DNA of 32,000 nt from Kineococcus radiotolerans SRS30216 = ATCC BAA-149 (GCF_000017305.1 NC_009664.2:3570001-3602000); one strand, 5' to 3'. Positions 2,672 to 19,953 are shown, numbered from the stretch's first letter. The notes: generated from the letters alone by a model not told the origin. Made by a program: numbers and translations.

Positions 2672-2742
2672 GGCGTCGACGAGCGGCCCGCCGTCCCCCG
2701 CCCCGGACCCCGCCCCGGACCCCGCCGCGTCCCGCCGCCCGG

Positions 2743-3906: not shown

Positions 3907-4439
3907 GGGGTCTCCTCCAGGCTCAGGGCCGTGCGCAGCGCGGACAGCCCGCGGTGCGCGTGGGTCTTGACCGCGCCCCGGCTGATGCCGAGGGCGGCGG
4001 CGATGTCCTCCTCGGACATCTCGCCCTGGTACCGCAGCACCAGGACCTCCCGCTGCCGGGTGGGCAGCGCGTCCAGGGCCCCCAGCACCATCCGGTGCTC
4101 GGCGGCCCGCACCGCGTGCTCCTCCGGCCCGTCGGGGGCCGGGTCCGGCAGCGGTCGCCTGCGGTCGGTGACGACGCGGTGCCGCAGCACGTCCCGGGCC
4201 CCGTTCACCACGCTGGTGCGCAGGTACGCGACGGCGGAGCCCTTGTCCGACAACCGGTTCCACCGACCGTGCAGGGTCACGAAGGCGTCGGCCACGACCT
4301 CCTCGGCGCTCGCGGACTCACCCATCAGCGAGCTCGCGAGCGCGACGAAGCGCCGCCAGTGCGCCGCGTAGAGCGCGCTGACCGCCTCGTCGGCGCTCCA
4401 CGAGCGCGGGTCGTCGGCCGGCTCAGCGGGCACGACCAC
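3903..4439 (-). CDS. ECF-type (group 4) sigma-70 family RNA polymerase sigma factor
   Basis: Region 2-like: LYAAHWRRFVALASSLMGESASAEEVVADAFVTLHGRWNRL...AYLRTSVVNGARD. Region 4-like: LPTRQREVLVLRYQGEMSEEDIAAALGISRGAVKTHAHRGLSALR. The ORF extends to GTG 4478, but GTG 4439/4433 follow a GGAGGAG Shine-Dalgarno, so the shorter start is preferred. Confidence 0.85.
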   Translation of the reverse strand: MVVPAEPADDPRSWSADEAVSALYAAHWRRFVALASSLMGESASAEEVVADAFVTLHGRWNRLSDKGSAVAYLRTSVVNGARDVLRHRVVTDRRRPLPDPAPDGPEEHAVRAAEHRMVLGALDALPTRQREVLVLRYQGEMSEEDIAAALGISRGAVKTHAHRGLSALRTALSLEETP

Positions 4440-4466
4440 GCGCTCCTCCGTTCCCCTCACGGGAGG

Positions 4467-4495
4467 TAGACGGGTCACGGGGGGTCACGGTTGAC
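4467..4495 (-). promoter_or_regulatory. Candidate ECF-type promoter upstream of the sigma factor gene (speculative)
   Basis: The minus strand reads GTCAAC-N16-CGTCTA, which resembles the AAC (-35) / CGTC (-10) cores of ECF promoters. It would place the transcription start just upstream of the GGAGGAG SD. It overlaps the GGGTCACGG direct repeats. Confidence 0.2.
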
Positions 4496-4551
4496 ATCCA
4501 ACCCGAGGCGATCCGGGGACCATCCGCGCCCGGCCCCGGCCGGCCGCCGGG

Positions 4552-4557
4552 TAGCGT
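4552..4557 (+). promoter_or_regulatory. -10-like hexamer TAGCGT 6 nt upstream of the HIT ATG (possible leaderless transcript)
   Basis: TAGCGTgcgggcATG matches the actinobacterial TANNNT -10 pattern. The spacing would put the TSS at or next to the A of the ATG, and there is no SD between them. Confidence 0.3.
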
Positions 4558-4563
4558 GCGGGC

Positions 4564-4929
4564 ATGAGCGAGGTCTCGCGCGTGCAGCGCGCTCCCGACG
4601 ACCTGTTCCTGCGGATCGTGGCCGGTGAGGTCCCCGCCACGATCGTCCACTCCGACGACCTCGTCGTCGCCTTCGAGGACGTGAACCCCCAGGCCCCCGT
4701 GCACGTGCTGGTGATCCCGCGCGAGCGCCACGAGAACGTCGCCCAGCTCGCCGCGGCCGCCCCGGCGACCCTGGCCCGGCTGGTGGAGGTGGCCCAGCGG
4801 ATCGCCGACGAGCGCTGCGGGGGGGAGTACCGCCTGGTCTTCAACACCGGCACCGCCGTGGGGCAGTCGGTCTTCCACGTGCACGGCCACGTCCTCGGGG
4901 GCCGGGGCTTCACCTGGCCGCCGGGCTGA
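4564..4929 (+). CDS. Histidine triad (HIT) family nucleotide hydrolase
   Basis: LFLRIVAGEVPATIVHSDDLVVAFEDVNPQAPVHVLVIPR... followed by the HIT signature SVFHVHGHVLGG (HxHxHxx). Confidence 0.9.
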   Translation: MSEVSRVQRAPDDLFLRIVAGEVPATIVHSDDLVVAFEDVNPQAPVHVLVIPRERHENVAQLAAAAPATLARLVEVAQRIADERCGGEYRLVFNTGTAVGQSVFHVHGHVLGGRGFTWPPG

Positions 4930-4951
4930 TCTCGCGGTTGGATGAGGCGCC

Positions 4952-6736
4952 ATGTGCGGTCTCTGCGGTGAAGTCAGGTTCGACGGGCGGGCGGCGGACG
5001 TCGCCGCCGTGCAGCGGATGTCCGAGACCATGGCGGCCCGCGGTCCGGACGGCGAGGGCGTCTGGGCGCAGGGGCGGGTGGCCTTCGGGCACCGGCGGCT
5101 GTCGGTCATCGACCTGTCGGCCTGCGGGGCGCAGCCCATGCAGGACCCCGAGCTGGGGCTGACCGCCGTCTTCAACGGCTGCATCTACAACTACCCCGAG
5201 CTGCGCGCGGAACTCGCCGGGCACGGCTACCGGTTCACCTCGACCTCCGACACCGAGGTCATCGTCAAGGGCTACCACCGGTGGGGCGTCGACGTCGTCG
5301 ACCACCTGGTCGGGATGTTCGCCGTCGTCCTCCACGAGCGCGACTCCGGGCGCGTGGTCCTCATGCGCGACCGGCTGGGGATCAAGCCGCTCTACCTGGC
5401 CGAGACCCCGGGCCGGCTGCGGTTCGCCTCGACGCTGCCCGCGCTGCTGGCCGGGGGCGACGTCGACACCACGATCGACCCGGTCGCCCTGCACCACTAC
5501 CTCTCCTGGCACGCCGTCGTCCCCGCGCCGCGCACGGTGCTGCAGGGGGTCCGGAAGCTGCCGCCGGCCACCGTGCGGGTCCTCGAGGCGGACGGGACCA
5601 GCCGCGAGCACCGCTACTGGGCGCCGGACCACGTGCGCCGCGAGGAGTTCGCGGGGTTCTCCGAACGGGACTGGGAGGACGCGGTCCTGGAGTCGCTGCG
5701 GACCGCGGTGCGCCGGCGGACGGTGTCCGACGTGCCCGTGGGGGTCCTGCTCTCCGGCGGGCTGGACTCCAGCCTCATCACCGCGCTGCTGGCCGAGCAG
5801 GGGCAGACCGACCTCGCGACCTACTCCATCGGGTTCGAGTCCGTGGGGGGCCGCGGCGGCGACGAGTTCGAGTACTCCGACGTCATCGCCGAGCGGTTCG
5901 CGACGGACCACCACCGCATCCGCGTCTCCGGCGACGAGCTCGTCGGGGCCCTCGGGCACGCGGTGGGGGCGATGAGCGAACCGATGGTGAGCCACGACGT
6001 GGCCGCCTTCGACCTCCTCTCCCAGCAGGTCTCGCAGAGCATCAAGGTCGTGCAGTCCGGGCAGGGCGCCGACGAGGTGTTCGGCGGGTACCACTGGTAC
6101 CCGCCGCTGGCCGGGCTCACCCCCCAGCAGGGCGTCGACGTCTACGCGCGGGCGTTCTTCGACCGCGACCACGCCGGGATGGCGCAGGTGCTGGACCCGC
6201 GCTGGCTCACCGCCACCGACGTCTCCCGGGAGTTCCTCGCCGAGCACTTCGCCCGGCCCGGCGCCGACACCGCCGTCGACGCGGCGCTGCGCCTGGACAC
6301 CGAGGTCATGCTCGTCGACGACCCGGTGAAGCGGGTCGACAACACGACGATGGCGTGGGGCCTGGAGGCGCGGGTCCCGTTCCTGGACCACGAGCTCGTC
6401 GAGCTCGCCGCGGCGGTCCCGCCGGAGCTGCAGCTGTCCGGGGGCGGCAAGGGGATCCTCAAGCGGGTCGGGTACCGGGTCATCCCGCGCGAGGTCATCG
6501 ACCGCCCCAAGGGCTACTTCCCGGTGCCGGCCATCACCCACCTGGAGGGGAAGGTGCTGGGGACGGTCAAGGACGCGCTGACCAGCCGGGCGGCGCAGGA
6601 CCGGGGGCTGTTCCGGCCGGAGTACGTCCAGGGCCTGCTGCGCGACCCCAACGGGGAACTGACCCCGTTGCGCGGCAACAAGCTCTGGCAGCTCGGTCTG
6701 CTCGAGATGTGGTTGCAGCAGCACGGCATCGGCTGA
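4952..6736 (+). CDS. asnO: Asparagine synthetase-family glutamine amidotransferase, N-acetylglutaminylglutamine amidotransferase-like
   Basis: MCGLCGE provides the class-II amidotransferase Cys2 nucleophile. The synthetase domain shows VGVLLSGGLDSSLITALL (PP-loop SGGLDS). It is followed 11 bp later by the GNAT+ATP-grasp Ngg-like gene, which is the asnO-ngg arrangement. Confidence 0.85.
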   Translation: MCGLCGEVRFDGRAADVAAVQRMSETMAARGPDGEGVWAQGRVAFGHRRLSVIDLSACGAQPMQDPELGLTAVFNGCIYNYPELRAELAGHGYRFTSTSDTEVIVKGYHRWGVDVVDHLVGMFAVVLHERDSGRVVLMRDRLGIKPLYLAETPGRLRFASTLPALLAGGDVDTTIDPVALHHYLSWHAVVPAPRTVLQGVRKLPPATVRVLEADGTSREHRYWAPDHVRREEFAGFSERDWEDAVLESLRTAVRRRTVSDVPVGVLLSGGLDSSLITALLAEQGQTDLATYSIGFESVGGRGGDEFEYSDVIAERFATDHHRIRVSGDELVGALGHAVGAMSEPMVSHDVAAFDLLSQQVSQSIKVVQSGQGADEVFGGYHWYPPLAGLTPQQGVDVYARAFFDRDHAGMAQVLDPRWLTATDVSREFLAEHFARPGADTAVDAALRLDTEVMLVDDPVKRVDNTTMAWGLEARVPFLDHELVELAAAVPPELQLSGGGKGILKRVGYRVIPREVIDRPKGYFPVPAITHLEGKVLGTVKDALTSRAAQDRGLFRPEYVQGLLRDPNGELTPLRGNKLWQLGLLEMWLQQHGIG

Positions 6737-6747
6737 GGGGGGTCCTC

Positions 6748-8538
6748 GTGAACACCACCAAGCGCCGCACGACCGTCGCGGGGTTGCGGCACCGGACGTT
6801 CGACGTCCCCGCGATCTCCAGCCGCAGCTGGCAGCGGCCGCCGACCTGGCTCACCTCCGGGATGGCCCGCGACGTCGTCCTCGACATGGGGTGGGGCCGC
6901 CTGGTCTTCGGCCAGACGTTCACCGACCAGCGCGACGTCGTCGACGCCCTGCGCGCGGAGGAGACCGGCGAGCGCGACATCGCCATGTACGTGCGCGACC
7001 CGCAGGTCCTCGTGGGCCTGGCCCCGCACGAGCTCTTCATGGACCCCTCCCTGACCTTCCGGCTGCCGCTGACCCGCTACCGCGCCCCGCGCGACCGCAA
7101 CCCGGACGTGTTCGTGCGGATGGTCCGCGACCGCGCGGAGCTGGAGGAGGTCAACCGCATCTACGCCACCTGCGGGATGGTGACCTCCGACGCCGACGTC
7201 ATGTGGGCCAACCACCGCACCCGCACGTTCACCTACCTGGTCGCCGAGGACACCCGCACCCGCGAGGTCGTGGGGACGGTGACGGGGGTCGACCACGTCC
7301 TGGCCTTCGGCGACCCCGACCAGGGCGCCAGCCTGTGGTGCCTGGCCGCGGACCCGCAGGCCGCCCCGCGGGGGGTGGGGGAGGCGCTGGTGCGCACCCT
7401 GGCGGAGCGCTACGTCGCCCGCGGGCGCGCGGTGCTGGACCTGTCGGTGCTGCACGACAACGCCGGGGCCATCGCGCTGTACCGCCGGCTGGGTTTCCGC
7501 CCCGCGCCGCCGGTCGTGGTCAAGCGCAAGAACCCCATCAACCGGCCGCTGTTCTCCCCGCAGCCGGCGGGGCTGGCCGCGCTGAACCCCTACGCGCGGA
7601 TCATCGCCGACGAGGCGCTGCGCCGGGGGGTGCGCGTGGAGGTGACCGACGCGCCCAGCGGGGAGATGCGCCTGACCCACGCGGGGCGCTCGCTGCTGAC
7701 CCGGGAGTCGCTCTCGGAGCTGACCAGCGCGGTCGCCATGTCGCGCTGCGACGACAAGCGCGTCACCCGGCGGCTGCTGGCCGCCCGGGGGGTGCGGGTC
7801 CCCGAGGCCGTGGAGCTCGGCGCGGACCCGCTGCACGACGAGGCGGGGCTCGCGGCCTGCGAGGAGCTCGCGGCCCGCACCGGTCCCGTCGTGGTGAAAC
7901 CCGCGCGGGGCGAGCAGGGCAAGGGCATCACCGTCGGGGTCGGCGGCGGGGAGGACCTGCGGCGCGCCGTCGCGGAGGCCGCCTCGCACTGCCCCGACGT
8001 GCTGGTCGAGGAGCTCGTCCGCGGGCAGGACCTGCGCATCGTCGTCATCGACCACGAGGTCGTCGCCGCGGCCGTGCGGCGCCCCGCGGCCGTCATCGGC
8101 ACCGGCGACGACGACATCGCGACCCTGGTGACCCGGCAGAGCCGGCGGCGCGAGGCCGCCACCCGCGGCGAGTCCAGCATCCCCCTGGACGACACGACGC
8201 GGGCCGTCGTTGCCGACGCCGGGTTCGCCCTGGACGACGTCCTGCCCCGGGGGCAGCGGCTGGAGGTGCGCCGCACGGCGAACCTGCACACCGGCGGCAC
8301 CATCGACGACGTCACCGACGACCTGCACCCGCAGCTGGTGGAGGCCGCCGTCGCGGCGAGCCGGGCCATCGGCATCCCCGTCACCGGGCTGGACCTCCTG
8401 GTGCCCGACGTCGCCGGTCCCGACCACGTGGTCATCGAGGCCAACGAGCGCCCCGGGCTGGCCAACCACGCCCCCCGCCCGACCGCGGAGCGGTTCCTGG
8501 ACCTGCTCTTCCCCGAGACCCGGCGGCAGGGGGCCTGA
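6748..8538 (+). CDS. ngg: N-acetylglutaminylglutamine synthetase-like bifunctional GNAT acetyltransferase / ATP-grasp peptide ligase
   Basis: GTG at 6748 (VNTTKRR) lies after GAGGGGGG. GNAT part: TFTYLVAEDTRTREVVGTVTGVDH...PRGVGEALVRTLAERYVARGRAVLDLSVLHDNAGAIALYRRLGF. ATP-grasp part: DDKRVTRRLLAARGVRVPE...VVVKPARGEQGKGITVGV...DLRIVVIDHEVVAAAVRRPA...NLHTGGT...GLDLLV...VVIEANERPGL. Confidence 0.85.
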   Translation: MNTTKRRTTVAGLRHRTFDVPAISSRSWQRPPTWLTSGMARDVVLDMGWGRLVFGQTFTDQRDVVDALRAEETGERDIAMYVRDPQVLVGLAPHELFMDPSLTFRLPLTRYRAPRDRNPDVFVRMVRDRAELEEVNRIYATCGMVTSDADVMWANHRTRTFTYLVAEDTRTREVVGTVTGVDHVLAFGDPDQGASLWCLAADPQAAPRGVGEALVRTLAERYVARGRAVLDLSVLHDNAGAIALYRRLGFRPAPPVVVKRKNPINRPLFSPQPAGLAALNPYARIIADEALRRGVRVEVTDAPSGEMRLTHAGRSLLTRESLSELTSAVAMSRCDDKRVTRRLLAARGVRVPEAVELGADPLHDEAGLAACEELAARTGPVVVKPARGEQGKGITVGVGGGEDLRRAVAEAASHCPDVLVEELVRGQDLRIVVIDHEVVAAAVRRPAAVIGTGDDDIATLVTRQSRRREAATRGESSIPLDDTTRAVVADAGFALDDVLPRGQRLEVRRTANLHTGGTIDDVTDDLHPQLVEAAVAASRAIGIPVTGLDLLVPDVAGPDHVVIEANERPGLANHAPRPTAERFLDLLFPETRRQGA

Positions 8539-8539
8539 G

Positions 8540-9283
8540 GTGCCCGAGGCGCACTCCCTGCACCGGCACGCCCGCGACCAGCGCGCGGCGCTGGCCGGGC
8601 AGGTGCTGTCGGTGAGCAGCCCGCAGGGCAGGTTCGACGCGACCCCCTTCGACGGGCACCGCCTGGTGGACGTGCAGGCCCACGGCAAGCACCTGCTGTA
8701 CTCCTTCGAGCAGGCGCCCGACGTCCACGTGCACCTGGGGATGAAGGGGATCTTCCTGCGCACCGAGGACCTGTCGCTGCCGCCGCGGGCGGGGACGCGG
8801 ATGCGCCTGGCGGGGGAGACGACGGCGTTCTCCCTCATCGCCCCCAGCCGGTGCGAGGCGTTGGACGCGGCCGCCCGCGCCGAGCTGCTCGCCTCCCTCG
8901 GCCCGGACCCGCTGCGCGAGGGCGCGGCGGCCCGGGAGGAGGCCGCGCGCCGCCTGGGCACCGCCCGCGGCGCGGTGGGCGCCGCGGTCCTGGACCAGTC
9001 GGTGTGGGCCGGGATCGGCAACGCCTGGCGCGCGGAGCTGCTCTTCCTCGCCGGGATCGACCCCGGCCGGCGCGTCGACGAGGCCGAGGCGGGCCGGGTG
9101 TGGGACCTCGCCGTGGAACTCCTGCCCCTGGGCGTGGACGCCGGTCAGGTCGTCTCCGACCCCACCGCCCCCGACGAGCGCTGGGTCTACAAGCGGGAGA
9201 CGTGCCGGCGCTGCGGGAGCCCGGTGGGGACCCGGACCGTGGGCGGGCGCACCGCCTACACCTGCCCCGTCGACCAGCGCTGA
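8540..9283 (+). CDS. nei: Fpg/Nei family DNA glycosylase / AP lyase (endonuclease VIII-like)
   Basis: The start VPEAHSLHRHA supplies the catalytic Pro2/Glu3 after Met removal. H2TH-like region: LDQSVWAGIGNAWRAELLFLAGIDP. The C-terminal finger is CRRCGSPVGTRTVGGRTAYTCPVDQR. GTG at 8540 is 1 nt after the ngg stop. Confidence 0.85.
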   Translation: MPEAHSLHRHARDQRAALAGQVLSVSSPQGRFDATPFDGHRLVDVQAHGKHLLYSFEQAPDVHVHLGMKGIFLRTEDLSLPPRAGTRMRLAGETTAFSLIAPSRCEALDAAARAELLASLGPDPLREGAAAREEAARRLGTARGAVGAAVLDQSVWAGIGNAWRAELLFLAGIDPGRRVDEAEAGRVWDLAVELLPLGVDAGQVVSDPTAPDERWVYKRETCRRCGSPVGTRTVGGRTAYTCPVDQR

Positions 9284-9304
9284 CCCGACCGGCGCTGAGC
9301 CGGC

Positions 9305-10219
9305 TCAGTCGGGCAGGCGGGCCCGCAGGCGCTCCAGCTCGCGCTCGGCGCGGGCCACGCGCTCGTCGGCGGCGCGGGCGGTGCGCTCGGCCGCCCGGCG
9401 GGTCCCCGCGGCCGCCTCCAGCTGCTCGGTGACGGCGTCGAGCTGGGCCCGCAGGTCCTCCTGCCGCCGGACCAGGTCGTCGCCGCGGCGCCGGGCGGAG
9501 GTCAGGTCGCCCGCGCTGGCCCCGGCCTCCTCGCGGGCCTCGGCCAGCTCCTCCCGGGCCGCCGCGACGGCCTCGCGCAGCTCCCGCAGCTCGAGCTCGC
9601 GGCGCCGGGCCTCGCGGGCGGCCTTCTCCTCCCGCCGGGCCTTCAGCTCGTCCGGGGGAACCACCCGGGGGGCGGGCCCCGCGGGGGTGGGTGCCGCGGA
9701 CCGCGCCGGCGCGTCGAGCGCCGTCGCGCCCTCCACGTCGGCCTCCACGTCGGTGAGACCCACCGCCTCCAGGGGCCGCACCAGCAGCCCCGAGCGGACC
9801 GCGTCGGCCGCGGCGGGGCCGGTCATCCCCGCCCGCAGCGTCTGGACGACCTTCTCCCCGGCCTCGGGGCTCAGCCGCACCCCCGCGGCGCGGGTCAGCC
9901 GCGCGGCCCGCGCCCGCAGGGCCGCCAGCACCCGGTGCTGCTGCACCGAGAGCTCACGCAGTTCCGGGCCGGCCAGCGCGGCCGTGGCCTCCCGCACGGC
10001 CGCCCCGAGCTCGAGCAGCCGCTCGACCTCCTCGCGGTGCTCGCGGACGAGCAGGTTCACCGCCCACGCGGGGACCGTCGGCCGGCGCAGCCCCGCGACG
10101 CGGGCGGCCAGGTCGCGGTCGCCCTCGGCGCGGGCCCGGCGCGCGCGGGCGTCGCGGGTGGCGGTGAACTCGGCCGGCGGGCCCGCGTAGAGCTCCTCCA
10201 GCACGGTGGGCAGGTCCAC
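9305..10219 (-). CDS. Hypothetical protein with a conserved-looking N-terminal domain and an Arg/Glu/Ala-rich coiled-coil C-terminus
   Basis: 304-codon ORF starting at GTG 10219 (VDLPTVLEELYAGPPAEFTATRDARARRA...RRPTVPAWAVNLLVRE). The C-terminus reads ELKARREEKAAREARRRELELRELREAVAAAREELAEAREE...RAERELERLRARL. No catalytic motif was recognised. Confidence 0.6.
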   Translation of the reverse strand: MDLPTVLEELYAGPPAEFTATRDARARRARAEGDRDLAARVAGLRRPTVPAWAVNLLVREHREEVERLLELGAAVREATAALAGPELRELSVQQHRVLAALRARAARLTRAAGVRLSPEAGEKVVQTLRAGMTGPAAADAVRSGLLVRPLEAVGLTDVEADVEGATALDAPARSAAPTPAGPAPRVVPPDELKARREEKAAREARRRELELRELREAVAAAREELAEAREEAGASAGDLTSARRRGDDLVRRQEDLRAQLDAVTEQLEAAAGTRRAAERTARAADERVARAERELERLRARLPD

Positions 10220-10352
10220 GTCGTCATCCTGGCACGGCCCCGGTGGGGTGACGGCGCGTGAGGATTCCGACCTCCAGCGTCACCGTCGGCGTCCGCCACG
10301 TAAACGTTCTGTTTCGCCCTCCGTTCTCGGCGGCACCGCGCCGGATCCGGTC

Positions 10353-10358
10353 TAGCGT
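10353..10358 (+). promoter_or_regulatory. -10-like hexamer TAGCGT 6 nt upstream of the ligase-fusion ATG (possible leaderless transcript)
   Basis: TAGCGTgacgggATG uses the same hexamer and spacing as at 4552-4566. It is preceded by the least GC-rich stretch of this spacer (GTAAACGTTCTGTTTCGCCCTCCGTTCTC, with CGTTCT twice). Confidence 0.3.
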
Positions 10359-10364
10359 GACGGG

Positions 10365-12929
10365 ATGGGTGCGGAGATGACGCTGGGCGCGGAAGAGGAA
10401 CTGCACCTCATCGACCTCGGGAGCGGGCAGTTGTCCGCCCGCGCCCCGCAGGTCCTGTCCCGGCTCGACCCCGCCTCCTACTCCGCGGAACTGCAGCGCA
10501 CGACGGTCGAGACCAACACCGACGTGGTGACGTCGCTGACGGAACTGCGCGAGGAACTCCTGCGCCTGCGCAAGGGCCTGGTGGAGGCCGCCGCCCGCGA
10601 CGGGCTCGGGGTCGCGGCCGTGGGCACGGCCCCCCGTTCGACGTTCACCGACTTCGAGCTCACCGCCACCGGGCGCTACGGGCGCATGCAGGAGCAGTAC
10701 CGGCTGCTGGTCGACGAGCAGCTCATCTGCGGGACCCAGGTCCACGTCGGCGTCTCCGACCGCGACCTCGCCGTCGAGATCATGCAGCGCGTCGCGCCGA
10801 GCCTGCCCGTGCTGCTGGCCCTCTCGGCCAGTTCCCCGTTCTGGAACGGCCAGGACACCGGCTACGCCAGCATCCGCACCACCGTCTGGCAGCGCTGGCC
10901 GACCGCGGGCAGCACCGGCCCGCTGGAGTCCGCCGCCCAGTACGACGAACTCCTCGCCGACCTCATCGCCTCCGGGGTGATCGGGGACGAGAAGATGGCG
11001 TACTTCGACGTCCGCCCCAGCTCCCACGCCCCCACCCTGGAACTGCGGGTGGCCGACGCCTGCCCGCTCGTCGACGACGCCGTGCTGATCGCCGGGTTGT
11101 TCCGCGCCGGGGTCCGGGCCGCGGAGCTCGACGTGCTCGCGGGCCGGCCCCGGCCGCAGGTGCCGAGCCCGCTGCACCGGGCCGGGATCTGGCAGGCGGC
11201 CCGCGGCGGCCTGTCGGGGAACCTGCTCGACGGGACCGAGCACCCCCGCCCCGTCCCCGCCCCCGAGGCGGTCCGGGCCCTGCTGACCCGGTTGCGCCCC
11301 CAGCTGGAGGAACTCGGCGACTGGGAGGAGGTGGCCGAGCTGACCGAGGCCACCCTCGCCCGCGGGAACTCCGCCGACCGCCAGCGCGCGGCGTTCGTCG
11401 AGCGCGGCGAGCTGGACGACGTGGTGCGCCTCGTCGTGGAGGAGACCCGCGGGTCCGCCGCCGGGGAGGCGCCCGCCACCGCCGCCCTGCGCCGCTACCG
11501 GACCCGGGCCGGCGACGAGGCCGTGGGGGGCAACGCCCGGCCCCGGCCGGTGTACCGGGAGGTCATCGAGCACGTCCGCCGGCGGGGCCCGGCCGGGATG
11601 GCCGCCGCCGAGGCCGAGCGCGACGCCTGGGCCCGCGAGCGGCAGCTGGCCTACGTCGTCACCGGCCCGGGGGGCCTGAGCCGGGAACCCTTCCACGTCG
11701 ACCTCGTCCCGCGCGTGGTCCTGCCCCACGAGTGGCGGCAGCTGCGCCGCGGGCTGGTGCAGCGCGCCCGCGCGATCGAGTGCTTCCTGCGCGACGTCTA
11801 CGGCGAGCAGCGCGTCCTGCGCGACGGGGTGCTGCCCCGCGACGCCGTCGTCGGCGCCCCGGGCTGGGACGAGCGGGCGACCCGGTTGCCGGCCGGCGCC
11901 GTGCGCGCGGCGGTGGCGGGTTTCGACCTCGTGCGCGACGAGCACGGCGGCTGGCGGGTGCTGGAGGACAACGTCCGCGACCCCAGCGGCATCGCCTACG
12001 CCGTGGCTGCGCGCGACGTGGTGGACGCCGTCCTGCCCGACCTGCCGCGGCCGGGGGCGGTGCTGGACCCGGCGACGGCGTTCGAGCAGCTGCGCTCCAC
12101 GCTGCTGGCCCGCGCCCGCCCGGGGACGCGCCCGGTGCTGCTGTCCAGCGGTCCCGCCAGCGCGGCCTGGTTCGAGCACCGCAAGCTCGCCGACGGGGCG
12201 GGGTTGCTGCTCGCCGGCGCCGACGACCTCGACGTGCAGCGCGGCCGCGTCCTGCACCGCCCGTCCGGCGACCCCGTCGGCGTGCTCTACCTGCGCCTGG
12301 ACGGCGCGCTCCCGGACCTGCGCGACGGCGCCGGGCGCGCGATCGGGCGGGAGGTCTTCGACGTGGCCGTCGAGGGCGGGGTGGTGCTCGCCAACGCCCC
12401 CGGCAACGGCGTCGCCGACGACAAGGCCATGTACCGCTCGGTGCCGGAACTCGTCAACTACTACCTCGGGGAACGACCGCTGCTGGAGTCGGTGCCGACC
12501 TACCGGCTCGGCGACGAGGGGGAGCGCCGCGCGGTCCTGGAACGGGTGGGGGAACTCGTGACGAAACCCGTCGACGGCTACGGCGGGCGGGGGGTCCTCA
12601 TCGGTCCCCACGCCACGGCCGCGGAGGTCGCCGCCCGGCGGCAGGAGATCGCGGCCGACCCCGCGCGCTGGGTGGCGCAGGAGGTCGTGCGGTTGTCCTC
12701 GGTGCCCAGCTGGAACTCCGGGGACCGCACGCTGCAACCGCGCCACGTGGACCTGCGGGCCTTCGTGCTCGTCCGGGGCACCGCCGAGGCCGACTGCACC
12801 CTCGCCGACGTCGCCCTCACCCGGGTCGCCCCCGAGGGCAGCCTCGTCGTGAACTCCTCCCGCGGCGGGGGCGCCAAGGACACCTGGATCCTGCGCGAGG
12901 AGGACGACCGCCCGGACGGGCGCCGCTGA
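10365..12929 (+). CDS. Fusion protein: GCS2/YbdK-type carboxylate-amine ligase (N-terminal, ~aa 1-365) plus circularly permuted type-2 ATP-grasp ligase (C-terminal, ~aa 395-854)
   Basis: N-terminal half: MTLGAEEELHLID, LICGTQVHVGV, SSPFWNGQDTGYASIRTTVWQRWPTAG, YFDVRPSSHAPTLELRVADACP. C-terminal half: PFHVDLVPRVVLPHEWRQLRRGLVQRARAIECFLRDVYGEQRVLRDGVLP, RVLEDNVRDPSGIAYA, NAPGNGVADDKAMYRSVPELVNYYLGERPLLESVPTY, LVTKPVDGYGGRGVLIGP. It is a single open frame with no internal stop. Confidence 0.8.
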   Translation: MGAEMTLGAEEELHLIDLGSGQLSARAPQVLSRLDPASYSAELQRTTVETNTDVVTSLTELREELLRLRKGLVEAAARDGLGVAAVGTAPRSTFTDFELTATGRYGRMQEQYRLLVDEQLICGTQVHVGVSDRDLAVEIMQRVAPSLPVLLALSASSPFWNGQDTGYASIRTTVWQRWPTAGSTGPLESAAQYDELLADLIASGVIGDEKMAYFDVRPSSHAPTLELRVADACPLVDDAVLIAGLFRAGVRAAELDVLAGRPRPQVPSPLHRAGIWQAARGGLSGNLLDGTEHPRPVPAPEAVRALLTRLRPQLEELGDWEEVAELTEATLARGNSADRQRAAFVERGELDDVVRLVVEETRGSAAGEAPATAALRRYRTRAGDEAVGGNARPRPVYREVIEHVRRRGPAGMAAAEAERDAWARERQLAYVVTGPGGLSREPFHVDLVPRVVLPHEWRQLRRGLVQRARAIECFLRDVYGEQRVLRDGVLPRDAVVGAPGWDERATRLPAGAVRAAVAGFDLVRDEHGGWRVLEDNVRDPSGIAYAVAARDVVDAVLPDLPRPGAVLDPATAFEQLRSTLLARARPGTRPVLLSSGPASAAWFEHRKLADGAGLLLAGADDLDVQRGRVLHRPSGDPVGVLYLRLDGALPDLRDGAGRAIGREVFDVAVEGGVVLANAPGNGVADDKAMYRSVPELVNYYLGERPLLESVPTYRLGDEGERRAVLERVGELVTKPVDGYGGRGVLIGPHATAAEVAARRQEIAADPARWVAQEVVRLSSVPSWNSGDRTLQPRHVDLRAFVLVRGTAEADCTLADVALTRVAPEGSLVVNSSRGGGAKDTWILREEDDRPDGRR

Positions 12930-12960
12930 GGACCCGCACCGCTGAGGCCCGGCACCGGCC

Positions 12961-14838
12961 GTGGGGCAGCATGGGCCCGTGAGCGACGAACCCCTGGACC
13001 CGACCCCCGGTCCCGCCCTGGCCCTGGCCGACGAGCTGGTCGGGGCGTGGGGGAGCTGGCGCCCCACGATGACCCCGGACGCGCGCCGGGTCGCCTTCGT
13101 CTCCGACCGCTCCGACCTGCCGCAGCTGTGGGTGCAGGACGTCGTCCTCGACGGCCCGGCCCCGCCCGCGCGGCGGATCCACCTCTCCGAGGACCCCGTG
13201 GTGTCGGTGTCGTGGGCGGCGGACAGCCGCTGGCTGGCGTGCGCGGTCGCCGCCGGCGGCGGGGTCCGGACCGAGGTGTGGGTGGTGCGCCCCGACGGCA
13301 CCGACGCCCGCCGCATCGCCGGCGAGGCCCACGAGCACGCCGAGCTCGGTCCCTGGACGCGCAGCGGGCACCGCGTCGTCGTCACCTTCCCCGCCACCGG
13401 GGGGAAACCCTCCCGGGCCTTCCTGGGCGACCCCGCCACCGGCCGGCTGGACCCGCTGGCCGAGGGCGGGCTCCTGCACGTCCTCGACGTGTCCCAGGAG
13501 GAGCGGTTCCTCGTCGTCGTCGACGGCGAGCGCGGCCAGCAGTTCGCCGTCGTCGTCGACCGCCTCATCGACGAGCACCAGCCGCTGCTGCCGCACGGCG
13601 CGACGGGTTCCACCGACGTCGCCCTGCTGCGCCCGGCCCCCGCCGGCGACACCGGCCCCGTCTACGTCTACCTCGCCTCCGACGTCGGCCTGCCCCGGCG
13701 CCAGCTGCTGGGGATGCCGTTCGGCCCCAACGGCTACCGCGGCGAGGCGCAGACCCTCGCCGCCCGCGACGACGCCGAGCTGGAGTTCGTCGACGGCGAC
13801 GACGCGGGAACCCTGCTGCTGCTGGTGTGGAACGTCGCCGGGGCGAGCGAGCTGGAGCTGTTCGACACCACCACCCGCGAGCGCACCCCGCTGCGGGGGA
13901 TGCCCGGGCTCGTCGCGACCGACCCGGTGCTCTCCCGCGACGGGCGCAGCGTCGTCCTCGGCGTCGAGGGCCCGCTGCGGCCGCGGGAGCTGTGGCACCT
14001 CGACACCGCCACGGGGGAGTGGACGCCCGTCACGCACTCCTCGGAACCCCCCGCGGGCGACCTCGTCGTCCCCGTCCTGGAGACCTACCCCGCCCACGAC
14101 GGGCTGACCCTCACCGGCTGGCTGTACCGGGCGGCGGGCGAGGGGGCGGGAGCGGCCGCGCTGTACCTGCACGGCGGCCCCGAGGCCCAGGAGCGGCCCA
14201 CGTTCAACCCCCTGGTCCAGGCCCTCGTCGCCGCGGGCGTCACCGTGCTCGCCCCCAACGTGCGCGGGTCCTCGGGCTTCGGGCGGGAGTTCGTGCACGC
14301 CGACGACGTCGAGAAGCGCCGCGACGCCTTCGCCGACGTGCTGACCAGCGCCGGGCACCTCGTGGCGCGGGGACTGGCCGACCCCGCGCGGATCGCGGTC
14401 ACCGGACGGTCCTACGGCGGGTACCTCGTCCTCGCCTCGCTCGCGTTCTCACCGGGGGTCTTCGCCGCCGGCGTCGACATCTGCGGCATGAGCGACCTCA
14501 CGACCTTCTACCGCGACACCGAACCCTGGATCGGGGCGGCCGCGGTCAGCAAGTACGGCCACCCCGAGCGCGACCGCGCCCTGCTGGAGGAGCTCTCCCC
14601 GCTGCGGCGGGTCGAGGCCGTCGACGTCCCCCTCCTCGTCGTCCACGGCGAGCTGGACACCAACGTCCCCCTCGGGGAGGCCCGCCAGGTCGTCGCCGCG
14701 CTGCGGGAGCTGGAGCGCGACGTCGACTACCTGGAGCTGGCCGGGGAGGGGCACGACTACCGGCGCGCGGAGTCGCGCCGGCAGCTGCTGCACCGCGTCG
14801 TCACCTTCCTCGGTGCGCACCTGGGCACGGCCGCCTGA
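12961..14838 (+). CDS. S9 family serine peptidase (prolyl oligopeptidase / acylaminoacyl-peptidase-like, beta-propeller plus alpha/beta hydrolase)
   Basis: Catalytic triad context: IAVTGRSYGGYLV (GxSxGG nucleophile), LLVVHGELDTNVP (Asp) and LAGEGHDY (His). The N-terminal propeller-like repeats include FVSDRSDLPQLWV. The start is GTG 12961, or alternatively GTG 12979. Confidence 0.85.
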   Translation: MGQHGPVSDEPLDPTPGPALALADELVGAWGSWRPTMTPDARRVAFVSDRSDLPQLWVQDVVLDGPAPPARRIHLSEDPVVSVSWAADSRWLACAVAAGGGVRTEVWVVRPDGTDARRIAGEAHEHAELGPWTRSGHRVVVTFPATGGKPSRAFLGDPATGRLDPLAEGGLLHVLDVSQEERFLVVVDGERGQQFAVVVDRLIDEHQPLLPHGATGSTDVALLRPAPAGDTGPVYVYLASDVGLPRRQLLGMPFGPNGYRGEAQTLAARDDAELEFVDGDDAGTLLLLVWNVAGASELELFDTTTRERTPLRGMPGLVATDPVLSRDGRSVVLGVEGPLRPRELWHLDTATGEWTPVTHSSEPPAGDLVVPVLETYPAHDGLTLTGWLYRAAGEGAGAAALYLHGGPEAQERPTFNPLVQALVAAGVTVLAPNVRGSSGFGREFVHADDVEKRRDAFADVLTSAGHLVARGLADPARIAVTGRSYGGYLVLASLAFSPGVFAAGVDICGMSDLTTFYRDTEPWIGAAAVSKYGHPERDRALLEELSPLRRVEAVDVPLLVVHGELDTNVPLGEARQVVAALRELERDVDYLELAGEGHDYRRAESRRQLLHRVVTFLGAHLGTAA

Positions 14839-14851
14839 GACGATCGGGGCG

Positions 14852-16060
14852 ATGAACGCGCGAACGAACGCCCAGCCCCCCGCGACGACGCCGCGGGAGG
14901 TCGACCTCCCCGTCGACGTCGAGTACCTGACGAGCACCCTCATGGAGCTGCTGCGCATCCCGAGCCCCTCGGGGCGCACCGACGCCGTCATGCAGGTCGT
15001 GGGCACCCACGTCGACGCCCTGGGCCTGTCCTTCGACCTGACCCGGCGCGGGATCCTGCGCGCCACCCTGCCCGGGGCCACCGACGCCGTGAAGCGGGCC
15101 GTGGTGGTGCACGCCGACACCATCGGGCTGATGGTCAAGCAGGTCAAGGACAGCGGCCGCCTGGAGGTCGTCCCCGTCGGCAGCCACAGCGCCCGCTTCG
15201 CCGAGGGCGCGCACGTGACGATCTTCACCGACGACTTCGACCGGGTGTACACCGGCACGGTCCTGCCGCTGAAGAGCAGCGGGCACACCTTCGGCGACGA
15301 GATCGACACCCAGGGCGTGGGCTGGGACCAGGTCGAGGTGCGCATCGACGAACCCGTCGAGTCCGCCCGCGACGTCGCCGCCCTCGGCGTCGAGGTCGGG
15401 GACTTCGTCGCCCTCGACGCCGCGCCGCAGCTCACCCGCGGCGGGTACGTGAAGTCGCGCCACCTGGACGACAAGGCCGGCCTGGCCGCGTGCCTGGCCG
15501 CGCTGAAGGCCCTGCACGACGCCGACGTCCCCCTCGCGGTGACCGCGCAGTTCCTCGTCACCATCGGCGAGGAGGTCGGTTTCGGCGCCACCCACGGGCT
15601 GGCCCCCGACGTCGCCGAGCTCGTCGCGGTGGACAACGCCGTCGTCGCGGCCGGGCAGAACTCCCGCGAGGAGCTGGTCAGCATCGGGATGCTCGACATG
15701 ACCGGCCCCTTCGACTACCACCTGTCCCGGCGGCTGCACTCCCTGGCCCGCGCCCACGGCATCCCCGCGGTGCGCGACGTGTACCGCCACTACCGCTCCG
15801 ACGCGGCCCCCGCGCTGGAGGCCGGCATCGAGGCCCGCCACGCCCTGCTCGGCTTCGGCCTGGACTCCAGCCACGGTCACGAGCGCGCCCACGTCGACGG
15901 CCTCGTCGCCCTGGCCCGCCTGCTCGTGGTGTACCTCCAGAGCGGGCTGACCTTCGACGACTGGGACCAGGCCGAGGCCGGGCCGCTGGCCGACTTCCCC
16001 AGCACCAGCGTCCAGCCGGCCGAGCCCGAACCGGTGGACCGCACGGTCCTCCCCGACTGA
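14852..16060 (+). CDS. M42 family metallopeptidase (glutamyl-aminopeptidase/FrvX-like), of the type that accompanies asnO-ngg
   Basis: LLRIPSPSGRTDAV, VVVHADTIGLMVKQVKDSGRLEVVPVGS, SRHLDDKAGLAACL, VTIGEEVGFGATHG and GFGLDSSHGHER are typical M42 metal-ligand and fold motifs. ATG at 14852 is 13 nt after the S9 stop. Confidence 0.85.
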   Translation: MNARTNAQPPATTPREVDLPVDVEYLTSTLMELLRIPSPSGRTDAVMQVVGTHVDALGLSFDLTRRGILRATLPGATDAVKRAVVVHADTIGLMVKQVKDSGRLEVVPVGSHSARFAEGAHVTIFTDDFDRVYTGTVLPLKSSGHTFGDEIDTQGVGWDQVEVRIDEPVESARDVAALGVEVGDFVALDAAPQLTRGGYVKSRHLDDKAGLAACLAALKALHDADVPLAVTAQFLVTIGEEVGFGATHGLAPDVAELVAVDNAVVAAGQNSREELVSIGMLDMTGPFDYHLSRRLHSLARAHGIPAVRDVYRHYRSDAAPALEAGIEARHALLGFGLDSSHGHERAHVDGLVALARLLVVYLQSGLTFDDWDQAEAGPLADFPSTSVQPAEPEPVDRTVLPD

Positions 16061-16082
16061 CGCGGTCTGGCACCCTGGGCGG

Positions 16083-18011
16083 GTGCGCTGGCTCGTCGTG
16101 GACAACCACGACTCCTACACCCACAACCTGGTCCAGCTGCTGGCCGTCGCCACCGGCACCGACCCGGTCGTGGTCAGCGACGACGACGTCGCCCCCGGGG
16201 AGCTCGACCTCGGCGGCTTCGCCGGTGTCGTCGTCTCGCCCGGGCCGGGGCACCCCGCCAACGCCCGCGACTTCGCCCTCTCCGCCGACGTCCTCGCCCG
16301 CGCCGAGGTGCCCGTGCTGGGCGTGTGCCTGGGGATGCAGGGGATCGCCCTGGCCGAGGGCGCGGTCGTGGACCCCGCCCCCCGGCCGCGGCACGGTTTC
16401 GTCGACCGGGTCCGGCACACCGGCACCTCGGTCCTCGCCGGCCTGCCCCAGGACTTCGCCGCGACCCGCTACCACTCCTTCCGCGTCGCCGAACCCCTGC
16501 CCGACAGCCTGGAACCGCTGGCGTGGGCCGGGGACGGGGTGCTCATGGCGCTGCGCCACCGGTCCCGCCCGCTGGTCGGGGTGCAATTCCACCCGGAATC
16601 GGTGGCCAGCACCACCGGGGCGCTGATCGTGGAGAACTTCGTGCGGTGGTGCCGGCGGTGGGGTTCGCGGCCCCACCGCCTGCACGCCCGCCGCTGCGGG
16701 CCGGCCGTCGACACCGAACGCGCGTTCGCGCACCTGTTCCCCGCCTCCGACGCGGCGTTCTGGCTGGACTCCGCCGCCCGCGGCGCGGGGTCGGGGCGGT
16801 TCTCGTTCCTGGGCGAGGGGACCGGGCCCGTCGTGGACTCCCTCGCCGGTCTCGCGGCCCGGCTGCGCGAGCGGGCGGTGGCCGGCGCGGACGCGGTGCC
16901 GTTCGAGTTCACCGGCGGTCTCGTCGGCTGGGCCGGGTACGAGGCCCGCGACGAGTGCGGGTTCCCGACGTCGCGGCGGGACGAGACCCCGCCCGCCGCG
17001 TGGGTGTTCTGCGACCGGTTCGTCGCCGTCGACCACGACGAGGACACCACGTGGGTCGTGGCCCTGTCCGAGGACGAGGCGGAACCGGCCTGGCTGGAGG
17101 AGGCCGCCGGTCTCCTCGCGGACCTCCCGCCGCTGCCGCCGCCCGCGCCCGCGCCGGAGGCCGCGGTGACCCTGGACACCCCGCCCGCGCGGTACCGGCA
17201 GGACGTCCTCACCGCGCAGCGGCAGCTGGTCGCGGGGGAGAGCTACGAGATCTGCCTCACCACCCGGGCCCGGGTCCCCGCCGCGGGCGACCCGTTCGAC
17301 GCCTACCGGCGGTTGCGGCGCGCCAACCCCGCCCCCTACGCCGCGTACCTGCGGATCGGCGGCGTCGTCGTGCTGAGCAGTTCCCCCGAGCGGTTCCTGC
17401 GGATCGGCACCTCGGGCGCGGTGGAGACCCGCCCCATCAAGGGGACCGCCGCCCTGGACTCCGATCCCGCTGCGCTGCAGGCGGACCCGAAGACCCGCGC
17501 GGAGAACCTCATGGTCGTCGACCTGCTGCGCAACGACCTCGGCCGCGTCTGCGTCCCCGGCAGCGTCACCGTGCCCGACCTCATGGCGGTGGAGACGCTG
17601 CCCACGGTGCACCAGCTCGTCACCACGGTGCGCGGCCGGCTGCGCCCGGAGGTCACGGCCGTGGACTGCCTGCTCAGCTGCTTCCCGCCCGGGTCGATGA
17701 CCGGGGCGCCGAAGCTGCGGACCACCGAGATCATCGACGCCCTGGAACAGCGCCCGCGCGGGATCTACTCCGGCACGATCGGGTGGTTCTCCACCACCGG
17801 CGCCGCGGACCTCGCCGTCGTCATCCGGACCGCGGTGCTCGTCGGGGACGAGTGGCGGGTCGGGGCCGGCGGCGCGGTCGTGCTCGACTCCGACCCCGAC
17901 GCCGAGGTGGCGGAGGTGCTGCTGAAGCTGCGGGCCCCGCTGGCCGCGCTCACGACCTCGCCGTGGCCGGGGCGGGTCACCCCCTCCGGCGGGCCTTCGC
18001 CGCGTACATGA
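16083..18011 (+). CDS. pabB: Fused aminodeoxychorismate synthase (PabA glutamine amidotransferase plus PabB component I)
   Basis: GATase-1 part: VLGVCLGMQG (Cys nucleophile) and VGVQFHPES. Chorismate-binding part: GESYEICLT, SSSPERFLRI, ETRPIKGT, ENLMVVDLLRNDLGRV, PPGSMTGAPK, RGIYSGTIGWF. GTG at 16083 is 22 nt after the M42 stop. Confidence 0.85.
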   Translation: MRWLVVDNHDSYTHNLVQLLAVATGTDPVVVSDDDVAPGELDLGGFAGVVVSPGPGHPANARDFALSADVLARAEVPVLGVCLGMQGIALAEGAVVDPAPRPRHGFVDRVRHTGTSVLAGLPQDFAATRYHSFRVAEPLPDSLEPLAWAGDGVLMALRHRSRPLVGVQFHPESVASTTGALIVENFVRWCRRWGSRPHRLHARRCGPAVDTERAFAHLFPASDAAFWLDSAARGAGSGRFSFLGEGTGPVVDSLAGLAARLRERAVAGADAVPFEFTGGLVGWAGYEARDECGFPTSRRDETPPAAWVFCDRFVAVDHDEDTTWVVALSEDEAEPAWLEEAAGLLADLPPLPPPAPAPEAAVTLDTPPARYRQDVLTAQRQLVAGESYEICLTTRARVPAAGDPFDAYRRLRRANPAPYAAYLRIGGVVVLSSSPERFLRIGTSGAVETRPIKGTAALDSDPAALQADPKTRAENLMVVDLLRNDLGRVCVPGSVTVPDLMAVETLPTVHQLVTTVRGRLRPEVTAVDCLLSCFPPGSMTGAPKLRTTEIIDALEQRPRGIYSGTIGWFSTTGAADLAVVIRTAVLVGDEWRVGAGGAVVLDSDPDAEVAEVLLKLRAPLAALTTSPWPGRVTPSGGPSPRT

Positions 18012-18900: not shown

Positions 18901-18967
18901 CGTCCTCACCCTCGTCCCCGACGGTGGAACGCGCAACCTCTCCGGGGTCCCCCCTCCCCGGGGCCGC

Positions 18968-19837: not shown

Positions 19838-19870
19838 CAGCCCTCCCGGGGCCCGGGCGCCGCCCCGCCG

Positions 19871-19896
19871 GGGCTCGGCGGGCGGGCTCGGCGGGC
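19871..19896. repeat. Perfect 13-bp tandem duplication GGGCTCGGCGGGC x2 in the pabC / DUF72 divergent spacer
   Basis: Direct reading: 19871-19883 and 19884-19896 are identical. The repeat is embedded in a G-tract run (GGGCGGGCTCGGCGGGCGGGG, 19880-19900). Confidence 0.9.
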
Positions 19897-19953
19897 GGGG
19901 CGGCGGCCCCGCCCCCACCCTGTGACCTGACGCGGTGGACGGGAGGGGGAGCG

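Follow-up and report, generated by a model that had tools for sequence, protein, structure and literature searches.

The genes for the compatible solute N-acetylglutaminylglutamine amide (NAGGN) in Kineococcus radiotolerans SRS30216 lie in a 32,000-nt stretch of its chromosome (NC_009664.2:3570001-3602000; hereafter the window, from whose first letter its positions are counted), where asnO and ngg are adjacent and the M42 peptidase gene that usually completes the trio is 6,313 nt from ngg, with a minus-strand gene in between. We consider it probable that two analogous gene sets for small peptide amides are combined here, the second being a remnant inserted at the ngg/M42 junction. As judged from homologous loci, two of the genes in the gap, encoding a double ligase and an S9 serine peptidase, represent two-thirds of a second, NAGGN-like trio, whose remaining member is a paralogue of AsnO that we call AsnO2 (the NAGGN enzyme being AsnO1). 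This second set, a conserved ligase/AsnO2/S9 module, looks like a sibling of the NAGGN system that has so far gone undescribed; our literature search found no description of it, and prior mention in comparative-genomics surveys is possible.

Because the majority of long open reading frames (ORFs) are spurious at the ~75% GC of the window, genes were called by the periodicity of GC content at third codon positions (GC3). The original prediction for this locus had described a NAGGN trio broken up by unrelated-looking genes, and all of the genes it named are present at the coordinates it gave, with the GC3 of 0.95-0.99 that is the actinobacterial coding signature. The 854-aa ligase and Ngg are each 100% identical to a protein of strain SRS30216, in the case of Ngg to the one annotated as N-acetylglutaminylglutamine synthetase. 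The features are listed below with their dN/dS values, those of the ligase and S9 genes being from comparison with the orthologues in Kineococcus sp. NBC_00420.

4564-4929, plus strand: HIT-family hydrolase gene (Pfam HIT, 84.5 bits; dN/dS 0.14)
4952-6736, plus strand: asnO (AsnO1 type), glutamine-dependent amidotransferase (TIGR03104, 968.5 bits against a cut-off of 570.1, full length; dN/dS 0.12)
6748-8538, plus strand: ngg, bifunctional N-acetylglutaminylglutamine synthetase (TIGR03103, 790.6 bits against a cut-off of 569; dN/dS 0.11)
8540-9283, plus strand: nei, Fpg/Nei-family DNA glycosylase gene (Pfam H2TH and Fapy_DNA_glyco; dN/dS 0.58)
9305-10219, minus strand: gene for an Ala/Arg/Glu-rich coiled-coil-like hypothetical protein, here CC (GC3 0.98; dN/dS 0.37)
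10290-10364, plus strand: leader and candidate promoter region of the ligase gene (~75 nt conserved with NBC_00420 and K. rhizosphaerae)
10365-12929, plus strand: double ligase of 854 aa, a GCS2(YbdK) + CP_ATPgrasp_2 fusion (Pfam; dN/dS 0.19)
12910-12956, no strand: 47-nt spacer, site of the AsnO2 deletion (alignment with the NBC_00420 locus, L081)
12961-14838, plus strand: S9 (prolyl-oligopeptidase-family) serine peptidase (Pfam Peptidase_S9, 149 bits; dN/dS 0.17)
14852-16060, plus strand: NAGGN-system M42 peptidase (TIGR03106, 490.5 bits against a cut-off of 397.75; dN/dS 0.29)
16083-18011, plus strand: PabA-PabB fusion (PabAB), aminodeoxychorismate synthase-like (Pfam GATase and Chorismate_bind; dN/dS 0.21)
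17977-18936, minus strand: PAS-GGDEF gene

The gaps between successive genes from HIT to PabAB are 22, 11, 1, 21, 145, 31, 13 and 22 nt. As in the described NAGGN system (asnO-ngg in Sinorhizobium meliloti, PA3459-PA3460-PA3461 in Pseudomonas aeruginosa), asnO precedes ngg with tight spacing, here 11 nt, and the products of asnO, ngg and the M42 gene pass all three equivalog models, so that the assignment of asnO and ngg to the NAGGN type is borne out; both the GNAT and the ATP-grasp domains of Ngg were matched in Pfam. Unlike in the described system, the trio is not contiguous: the M42 gene is 6.3 kb off, behind a gene on the opposite strand and in another probable operon, where it sits 13 nt behind the S9 gene. 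Coordinates and junction sequences agree that nei (which begins 1 nt past the ngg stop), CC, the double ligase and the S9 gene are what part M42 from ngg, as had been predicted.

To describe the module from which the ligase and S9 genes would derive, we sampled the annotated neighbourhoods of six ligase homologues together with 80 metagenome loci found with the fusion, within a comparison of ~180 related loci overall. The normal content of the module is a double ligase joining GCS2 to a circularly permuted (CP) ATP-grasp domain, then AsnO2, then an S9 peptidase. Full-length GCS2-CP_ATPgrasp_2 fusions make up all of the best 120 homologue clusters, and the window ligase is 57-90% identical to the ligases of other module loci; likewise, its S9 protein is 57-86% identical to those encoded behind AsnO2 elsewhere. 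The full triad is found in Kineococcus sp. NBC_00420, K. rhizosphaerae, K. rubinsiae and Microlunatus capsulatus, and Geodermatophilus sabuli has the ligase and AsnO2 pair with S9 missing. In these five isolates the gene directly behind the ligase encodes an Asn-synthase-family protein of 594-596 aa, AsnO2. Among the metagenome loci with enough downstream sequence, an AsnO-like gene follows the ligase in 36 of 44, and S9 is present in 31 of 35. Thus the module is self-contained elsewhere, with an amidotransferase of its own. No ngg or M42 gene stands beside the ligase outside Kineococcus in the 80 metagenome ligase loci, where a nei homologue on a Kineococcus-like fragment (L152) is the sole gene of the trio side; in the loci examined, the module adjoins ngg or M42 in two Kineococcus lineages only. 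Since the third gene of the module is a close asnO paralogue, the ligase and S9 genes of the window are not unrelated to the NAGGN genes, and to this extent the description of the intervening genes as unrelated-looking has to be amended.

Variants of the module also occur. The AsnO-S9 pair is found with a standalone CP ATP-grasp gene instead of the fusion in L162 and L165; the former, a metagenome locus (2176-10261), reads ANTAR/GAF regulator, AsnO, S9, standalone CP ATP-grasp, carbamoyltransferase. A Streptomyces fungicidicus plasmid (L174, 4625-10004) carries a standalone GCS2 gene followed by AsnO and a 748-aa S9-like hydrolase, and Streptomyces sp. NBC_01276 (L175, 6001-10091) has AsnO followed by S9 with no adjacent ligase; the amidotransferases of both Streptomyces loci are annotated 'NAGGN amidotransferase'. 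Finally, metagenome loci L108 and L109 independently have the ligase followed by S9 without AsnO2, with no ngg or asnO within the contig, an arrangement in which ligase and S9 apparently persist without a nearby amidotransferase. As a separate matter, the labels 'MAG: Janthinobacterium lividum' and 'Paenibacillus sp. TRM 82003' are attached to some proteins (P0004, P0126 and P0253) that share 78-86% identity with the ligase, AsnO2 and Ngg of Kineococcus, probably through contamination or mislabelling of the source assemblies.

The two kinds of amidotransferase can be told apart by descent. AsnO2 is 58-68% identical to NAGGN AsnO proteins, with its N-terminal Cys2 glutaminase intact, and the window AsnO is 88-91% identical to the AsnO1 of other Kineococcus and 65% identical to AsnO2. 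In a tree of 111 full-length copies (40 ligase-linked, 69 Ngg-linked), all 40 ligase-linked copies fall in one clade, with bootstrap 100, and 0 of the 69 Ngg-linked copies fall inside it; the window AsnO belongs to the Ngg-linked group. The bootstrap value was 97 with the L162/L165 variants added. When the Streptomyces variants were added as well, in an analysis that included a Sinorhizobium reference, the S9-linked amidotransferases as one clade received a bootstrap of 34. The tree thus places AsnO2 as a sister clade of AsnO1. Of 221 alignment columns at least 95% conserved in both clades, 220 hold the same residue, and such near-identical conserved cores suggest very similar acceptors. At the 80% level there are 15 clade-specific positions, and 9 of these lie within residues 487-577, a clustering consistent with a real difference in specificity. 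G. sabuli carries both systems at separate loci and keeps an amidotransferase at each, which argues that AsnO1 and AsnO2 are not interchangeable.

How the window came to lack AsnO2 can be read from its alignment with L081 of NBC_00420. The two sequences align up to window position 12909 and again from 12957, and L081 12546-14393 (1,848 nt), containing the whole AsnO2 gene at 12561-14345, is replaced in the window by 47 nt. This alignment indicates that AsnO2 was cleanly deleted in K. radiotolerans after insertion of the module; no convincing remnant of the AsnO2 5' end was found in the 47-nt spacer. No K. radiotolerans AsnO2 is present among the best 120 homologue clusters, where that of K. 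rhizosphaerae appears at 85%. The two genes left behind are intact, full-length ORFs with all Pfam domains, and their dN/dS values are comparable with that of PabAB; both are under purifying selection. Only nei and CC look relaxed in the same comparison.

Comparison of seven Kineococcus loci gives an order to the insertions. Their arrangements are as follows.

K. xinjiangensis (most distant; Ngg 78%): HIT, AsnO, Ngg, M42
K. aurantiacus and K. endophyticus: HIT, AsnO, Ngg, Nei, CC (minus strand), M42, without the ligase module
K. indalonis and K. auxinigenes: Nei plus other fillers
K. radiotolerans: the same left side, then Nei, CC (minus strand), ligase, S9, M42, PabAB
Kineococcus sp. NBC_00420 (nearest; Ngg 90%): a 51-aa nei remnant, CC (minus strand), ligase, AsnO2, S9, PabAB

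These arrangements form a nested series, so that the 6.3-kb gap is two-layered, and they support two successive insertions at the ngg/M42 junction, nei and CC first and the ligase module second. An older layer of ~1.7 kb consists of nei and CC, and a younger one of ~4.6 kb starts ~75 nt upstream of the ligase ATG and ends at the S9 stop. The original suggestion that an insertion broke the trio is in this way both supported and refined. After insertion of the module, NBC_00420 lost M42 and most of nei. The nei gene is missing in K. xinjiangensis and present in five other Kineococcus; in K. aurantiacus and K. endophyticus a CC homologue (64-70%) separates it from M42. Both nei and CC are passengers. 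PabA-PabB is a backbone gene at the right edge of the variable region and comes after M42 or S9 in K. indalonis, K. auxinigenes and NBC_00420. A repeat search of 8400-16300 gave short, low-identity, high-GC matches only, with no target-site duplication, insertion sequence element or integrase signature. The M42 protein itself has the descent expected of a displaced trio member. Its kinship with NAGGN-associated M42 peptidases, which the original prediction had made a test of its view, is upheld by synteny and sequence, which show it to be orthologous: it is 77-89% identical to the M42 peptidases of Kineococcus, including the ngg-adjacent one of K. xinjiangensis, and 55-70% identical to trio-adjacent ones of other Actinomycetota.

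Splitting of the trio is in itself an ordinary, lineage-specific rearrangement. In 80 Ngg-anchored loci from other species (10-kb flanks, with window proteins mapped onto each), M42 lies within 700 nt of ngg in 39, in agreement with the claim that it is usually adjacent; the trio is split in 3, M42 is lacking within at least 5 kb in 26, all Geodermatophilaceae, and the locus is too short to judge in 12. Contiguous trios are found in Micromonospora, Salinispora, Jiangella, Acidimicrobiales and Nitriliruptorales. The fillers of the three split trios are heterogeneous and unrelated: an alpha/beta hydrolase and a saccharopine-dehydrogenase-like gene in K. indalonis; M48, PucR, deaminase, permease and hydrolase genes in Phytoactinopolyspora (L038); rhomboid and AAA genes in Nitriliruptor (L054). 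The ligase fusion, the S9 gene and the coiled-coil gene are near ngg in 0 of the 80. Taken alone, the mixed fillers and this last count would favour chance insertion. M42 is a frequent but dispensable part of NAGGN loci, since 17 genomes have asnO-ngg alone (PMC8070244) and in S. medicae the 4.2 kb examined around asnO-ngg hold no M42. In P. aeruginosa, PA3459-PA3460-PA3461 form a salt-induced operon, and the NAGGN chemistry has been described (PMC8070244). An actinomycete with asnO/ngg, Micromonospora provocatoris, produces NAGGN (PMC8146288).

Several other features of these loci were noted. In Geodermatophilaceae (L004, 11820-14808; L014, 11803-14688) ngg is followed by crcB-crcB-otsA-otsB, the last two for trehalose synthesis, in an osmolyte supercluster, and in K. 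rubinsiae otsA-otsB (L084, 20550-22556) lie ~4 kb from the ligase module. Modestobacter loci and G. dictyosporus (L045) have ngg without adjoining asnO (L007, L014, L018, L019, L033 and L045), and in L014 an ABC transporter stands upstream of the asnO-less ngg.

With regard to expression, the spacing of the genes makes it likely that HIT, asnO, ngg and nei are one transcription unit, and by their spacing ligase, S9, M42 and pabAB would be a second. Its position 13 nt behind S9 makes it probable that the M42 gene is co-transcribed with the ligase module and not with asnO-ngg; M42 would have lost its own upstream region and moved from a NAGGN operon context into the ligase operon. The leader of ~75 nt is common to the window, NBC_00420 and K. 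rhizosphaerae, and the flanks of K. rhizosphaerae are otherwise unrelated, so the leader travels together with the ligase module. It contains a conserved 'CACGTAAACGT...GTTTCG' ~70 nt upstream of the ATG and a TAGCGT (-10-like TANNNT) that ends 6 nt before the ligase ATG at 10365; in Microlunatus, Geodermatophilus and metagenome loci, too, a TANNNT precedes the conserved first ATG by 6-8 nt. A TANNNT just before the start codon is typical of leaderless actinobacterial mRNAs, and the conservation suggests that the leader comprises a candidate operator and a leaderless promoter, the promoter role being putative. Scans of 4300-19000 for sigma-70 consensus promoters and intrinsic terminators gave none, such scans being uninformative at 75% GC, and Rfam models detected neither a riboswitch nor a leader RNA in 4000-19000, the lone match being a chance miRNA at E=0.67. 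Unlike the described NAGGN system, in which a MarR regulator is upstream, asnO of the window is preceded by the HIT gene. This gene is immediately upstream of asnO in every Kineococcus locus seen, the contiguous K. xinjiangensis included, and is not adjacent to asnO in other genera; the operon may have in it a fourth member particular to this lineage. The AsnO reaction passes through an acyl-adenylate, a kind of nucleotide adduct that HIT proteins hydrolyse.

The architecture of the encoded proteins invites comparison with known systems. In the double ligase, GCS2 occupies residues 7-252 and CP_ATPgrasp_2 residues 449-822 (366 bits), with YbdK (1R8G/1TT4) and 3N6X as the respective closest solved relatives. 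Its start at ATG 10365 is conserved across genera, and the public K. radiotolerans annotation is 4 codons shorter (10377, 850 aa). For the S9 gene the start calls for a minor correction: the orthologue alignment fits GTG 12979 better than 12961, so the former is probably the true start. The S9 translation shows, as read by eye, a GRSYGG Ser motif, a candidate Asp (in HGELDT) and a candidate His (in GEGHDY). The protein is of acylaminoacyl-peptidase-like type, being closest among solved structures to 5L8S, 'amino acyl peptidase', and to acylamino-acid-releasing enzymes such as 1VE6. For M42 the closest is 2GRE, 'deblocking aminopeptidase' (246 bits). Like the NAGGN trio, the module combines a two-domain ligase, a TIGR03104-family amidotransferase and a peptidase; unlike in that trio, the ligase and peptidase parts are non-homologous, being GCS2 + CP ATP-grasp against GNAT + classical ATP-grasp, and S9 against M42. 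The fusion also resembles GshF/GshAB in having an N-terminal glutamate-cysteine-ligase-superfamily domain fused to a C-terminal ATP-grasp, an architecture that suggests two successive ATP-dependent ligations to a gamma-glutamyl peptide. It differs in that its N-domain is GCS2/YbdK and its C-domain a circularly permuted type-2 ATP-grasp, and GshF has no partner amidotransferase or S9 peptidase. We rejected an identification with GshF, whose models (NF002688/TIGR01435) gave no match, and keep the likeness as an architectural analogy only.

Two further likenesses were weighed. The pairing of an Asn-synthase-family cyclase with an Atxe2-type S9 isopeptidase is known from lasso-peptide clusters, and the module proteins match the corresponding models weakly. 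This reading was rejected: the cyclase model NF033535 gave 201-238 bits against 525 and the isopeptidase model NF033523 68 against 400, and AsnO2 has retained its N-terminal Cys2 glutaminase and is matched by TIGR03104 over its whole length; no lasso B-protein or precursor peptide gene was seen in the module neighbourhoods. The C-domain of the fusion belongs to the same Pfam family as the CP ATP-grasp (COG2308/DUF407) systems, which Iyer, Aravind et al. (2009) are said to have predicted to operate with alpha-E and transglutaminase-like partners. The partners in the module are different, namely a fused GCS2, AsnO2 and S9.

From these comparisons we propose the following scheme. In the NAGGN set, Ngg acetylates and joins two glutamines, AsnO1 amidates the C-terminal carboxylate, and the 'deblocking'-type M42 peptidase presumably recycles the product. 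In the module, a capping or ligating enzyme with two catalytic domains (GCS2/YbdK and CP ATP-grasp), predicted to form acyl phosphates, would act first; a glutamine-dependent carboxylate amidation by AsnO2 would follow; and S9, of a peptidase type acting on N-blocked peptides, would act third. By this analogy, the most likely role of the module is synthesis and turnover of a further di- or tripeptide amide, N-capped and possibly gamma-glutamyl, and our best guess is that the C-terminal moiety of its product would resemble that of N-acetylglutaminylglutamine (NAGG). A gamma-glutamyl di-/tripeptide amide used as a compatible solute could be one such product, and a thiol resembling glutathione amide another. 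K. radiotolerans would either have dropped the amidation step or rely on AsnO1 for it.

Some points weigh against this account. The nature of the module product is deduced solely from domain families and the analogy with NAGGN, and the operon and promoter assignments from spacing and a conserved motif. The genome-wide absence of AsnO2 in K. radiotolerans was judged indirectly, by named cluster representatives only, and the direction of the changes was decided by parsimony among the seven Kineococcus loci, with Ngg identity standing in for a phylogeny. The PDB names 'deblocking aminopeptidase' and 'putative glutathionylspermidine synthase' are labels given by the depositors. In addition, CP ATP-grasp and GCS2-superfamily enzymes were reportedly proposed by Iyer et al. 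(2009) to modify proteins.

Beyond a composite of genes, the two systems might have merged functionally in K. radiotolerans, with AsnO1 amidating both NAGG and the ligase product and with S9 and M42 both performing turnover, a reading that we regard as possible but doubtful. It draws on losses that mirror each other in the two sister genomes where the modules adjoin, K. radiotolerans lacking AsnO2 and having M42, NBC_00420 having AsnO2 and lacking M42; yet these are two genomes only, and the losses could be a coincidence. Purifying selection on ligase and S9 persists without AsnO2, and the M42 gene is now directly behind S9; against this, the L108/L109 arrangement shows ligase and S9 together with neither AsnO2 nor any ngg or asnO on the contig. 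The agreement of AsnO1 and AsnO2 at 220 of 221 columns, with 15 clade-specific positions, speaks for exchange, but the clustering of nine of those positions and the retention of an amidotransferase at each of the two G. sabuli loci speak against it. Sharing of AsnO1 between the two pathways in K. radiotolerans is plausible because of the near-identical conserved cores and the reciprocal losses. The original prediction had offered, as an alternative to a broken trio, that the ligase and peptidase genes extend or modify the NAGGN pathway. In general the self-contained module, apart from ngg elsewhere, is counter-evidence; for this genome, the deletion of AsnO2, the loss of M42 in its sister and the small number of clade-specific positions would favour it. 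The broader statement, that an undescribed capped-peptide-amide system of Actinomycetota has merged with that for NAGGN in K. radiotolerans, with AsnO1 serving both ligases, is put forward tentatively.

It is unlikely that ligase and S9 are pure passengers, unrelated to compatible solutes or NAGGN and serving, for example, to tag a protein with peptides or to salvage gamma-glutamyl compounds, that landed by chance at a recombination-prone junction. The ngg/M42 junction is indeed a hot spot, at which unrelated genes have settled on several occasions, in Kineococcus (nei, coiled-coil, saccharopine-dehydrogenase-like, alpha/beta-hydrolase and OmpA genes) and elsewhere (the fillers of L038 and the rhomboid/AAA genes of L054), and the region is part of a variable stretch between the backbone genes hrcA-dnaJ and phoH-ybeY-corC. 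Nor is the module found beside ngg or M42 outside Kineococcus, whether one starts from the Ngg-anchored loci or from the ligase loci. However, its regular partner is a TIGR03104-family enzyme, similar to NAGGN AsnO and with Cys2 intact, which ties the chemistry of the module to carboxylate amidation of a small acceptor, and chance would hardly produce enzyme roles that match those of the NAGGN trio one to one. The alpha-E and transglutaminase families, partners of the protein-modifying CP ATP-grasp systems, are also absent (Pfam) from the window and from the annotated neighbourhoods of the six ligase homologues, and no Anbu proteasome genes were found in the ligase-homologue neighbourhoods examined. 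That ligase and S9 are non-functional leftovers, decaying since the loss of AsnO2, is highly improbable: the middle gene of the module is gone and adjoining passengers erode (nei is reduced to 51 aa in NBC_00420 and has a dN/dS of 0.58 here), but both ORFs are intact with every Pfam domain, their dN/dS of 0.17-0.19 is not above that of the backbone gene PabAB, the S9 Ser motif and candidate Asp and His are readable, and the conserved leader is kept.

Some neighbouring features deserve mention. The nei product scores 103 bits on the Nei2 model, far under the cut-off of 400; it keeps the catalytic N-terminal Pro-Glu and has a zinc finger of the form CxxC-x16-CPx(D/E)Q, with Asp or Glu for the fourth Cys in 5 of 5 Kineococcus orthologues. 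The CC protein had no match in a Pfam scan. Within 16083-19918, PabA-PabB overlaps the convergent PAS-GGDEF gene by 35 nt, and a class-IV aminotransferase gene (PabC-like) is next on the minus strand, so that pab genes are scattered around a diguanylate cyclase gene. Towards the other end of the window, ~2.5 kb of minus-strand ORFs at 204-2740 (MCP-signalling domain, PAS and GNAT-like), between dnaJ and Germane/ECF-sigma genes, have no counterpart in NBC_00420 and represent another lineage-specific insertion in the same variable region.

These findings bear on annotation as well as on physiology. AsnO2 scores 936-947 bits on TIGR03104 and is for this reason named "N-acetylglutaminylglutamine amidotransferase" by the Prokaryotic Genome Annotation Pipeline (PGAP); the label is thereby over-propagated and is carried by the K. 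rhizosphaerae protein too, in a species for which no Ngg homologue was found (neither it nor K. rubinsiae is among the ~20 Kineococcus species with an Ngg in the homologue listing). Kineococcus also offers natural experiments on enzyme interchangeability: K. radiotolerans without AsnO2, NBC_00420 without M42, K. rhizosphaerae with the module only and K. aurantiacus with the NAGGN genes only. The split of the trio is of modest interest, and the second trio is the part worth attention. Few compatible solutes have a dedicated non-ribosomal dipeptide pathway for their synthesis, and NAGGN is one of them. Tolerance of desiccation and radiation is noted for Kineococcus, Geodermatophilaceae, Microlunatus and Amnibacterium. 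The systematic pairing of an AsnO paralogue with another two-domain ligase and another peptidase, in well over 100 protein clusters and metagenome contigs of actinobacteria, suggests that these soil and desert actinomycetes make a sibling metabolite yet to be characterised.

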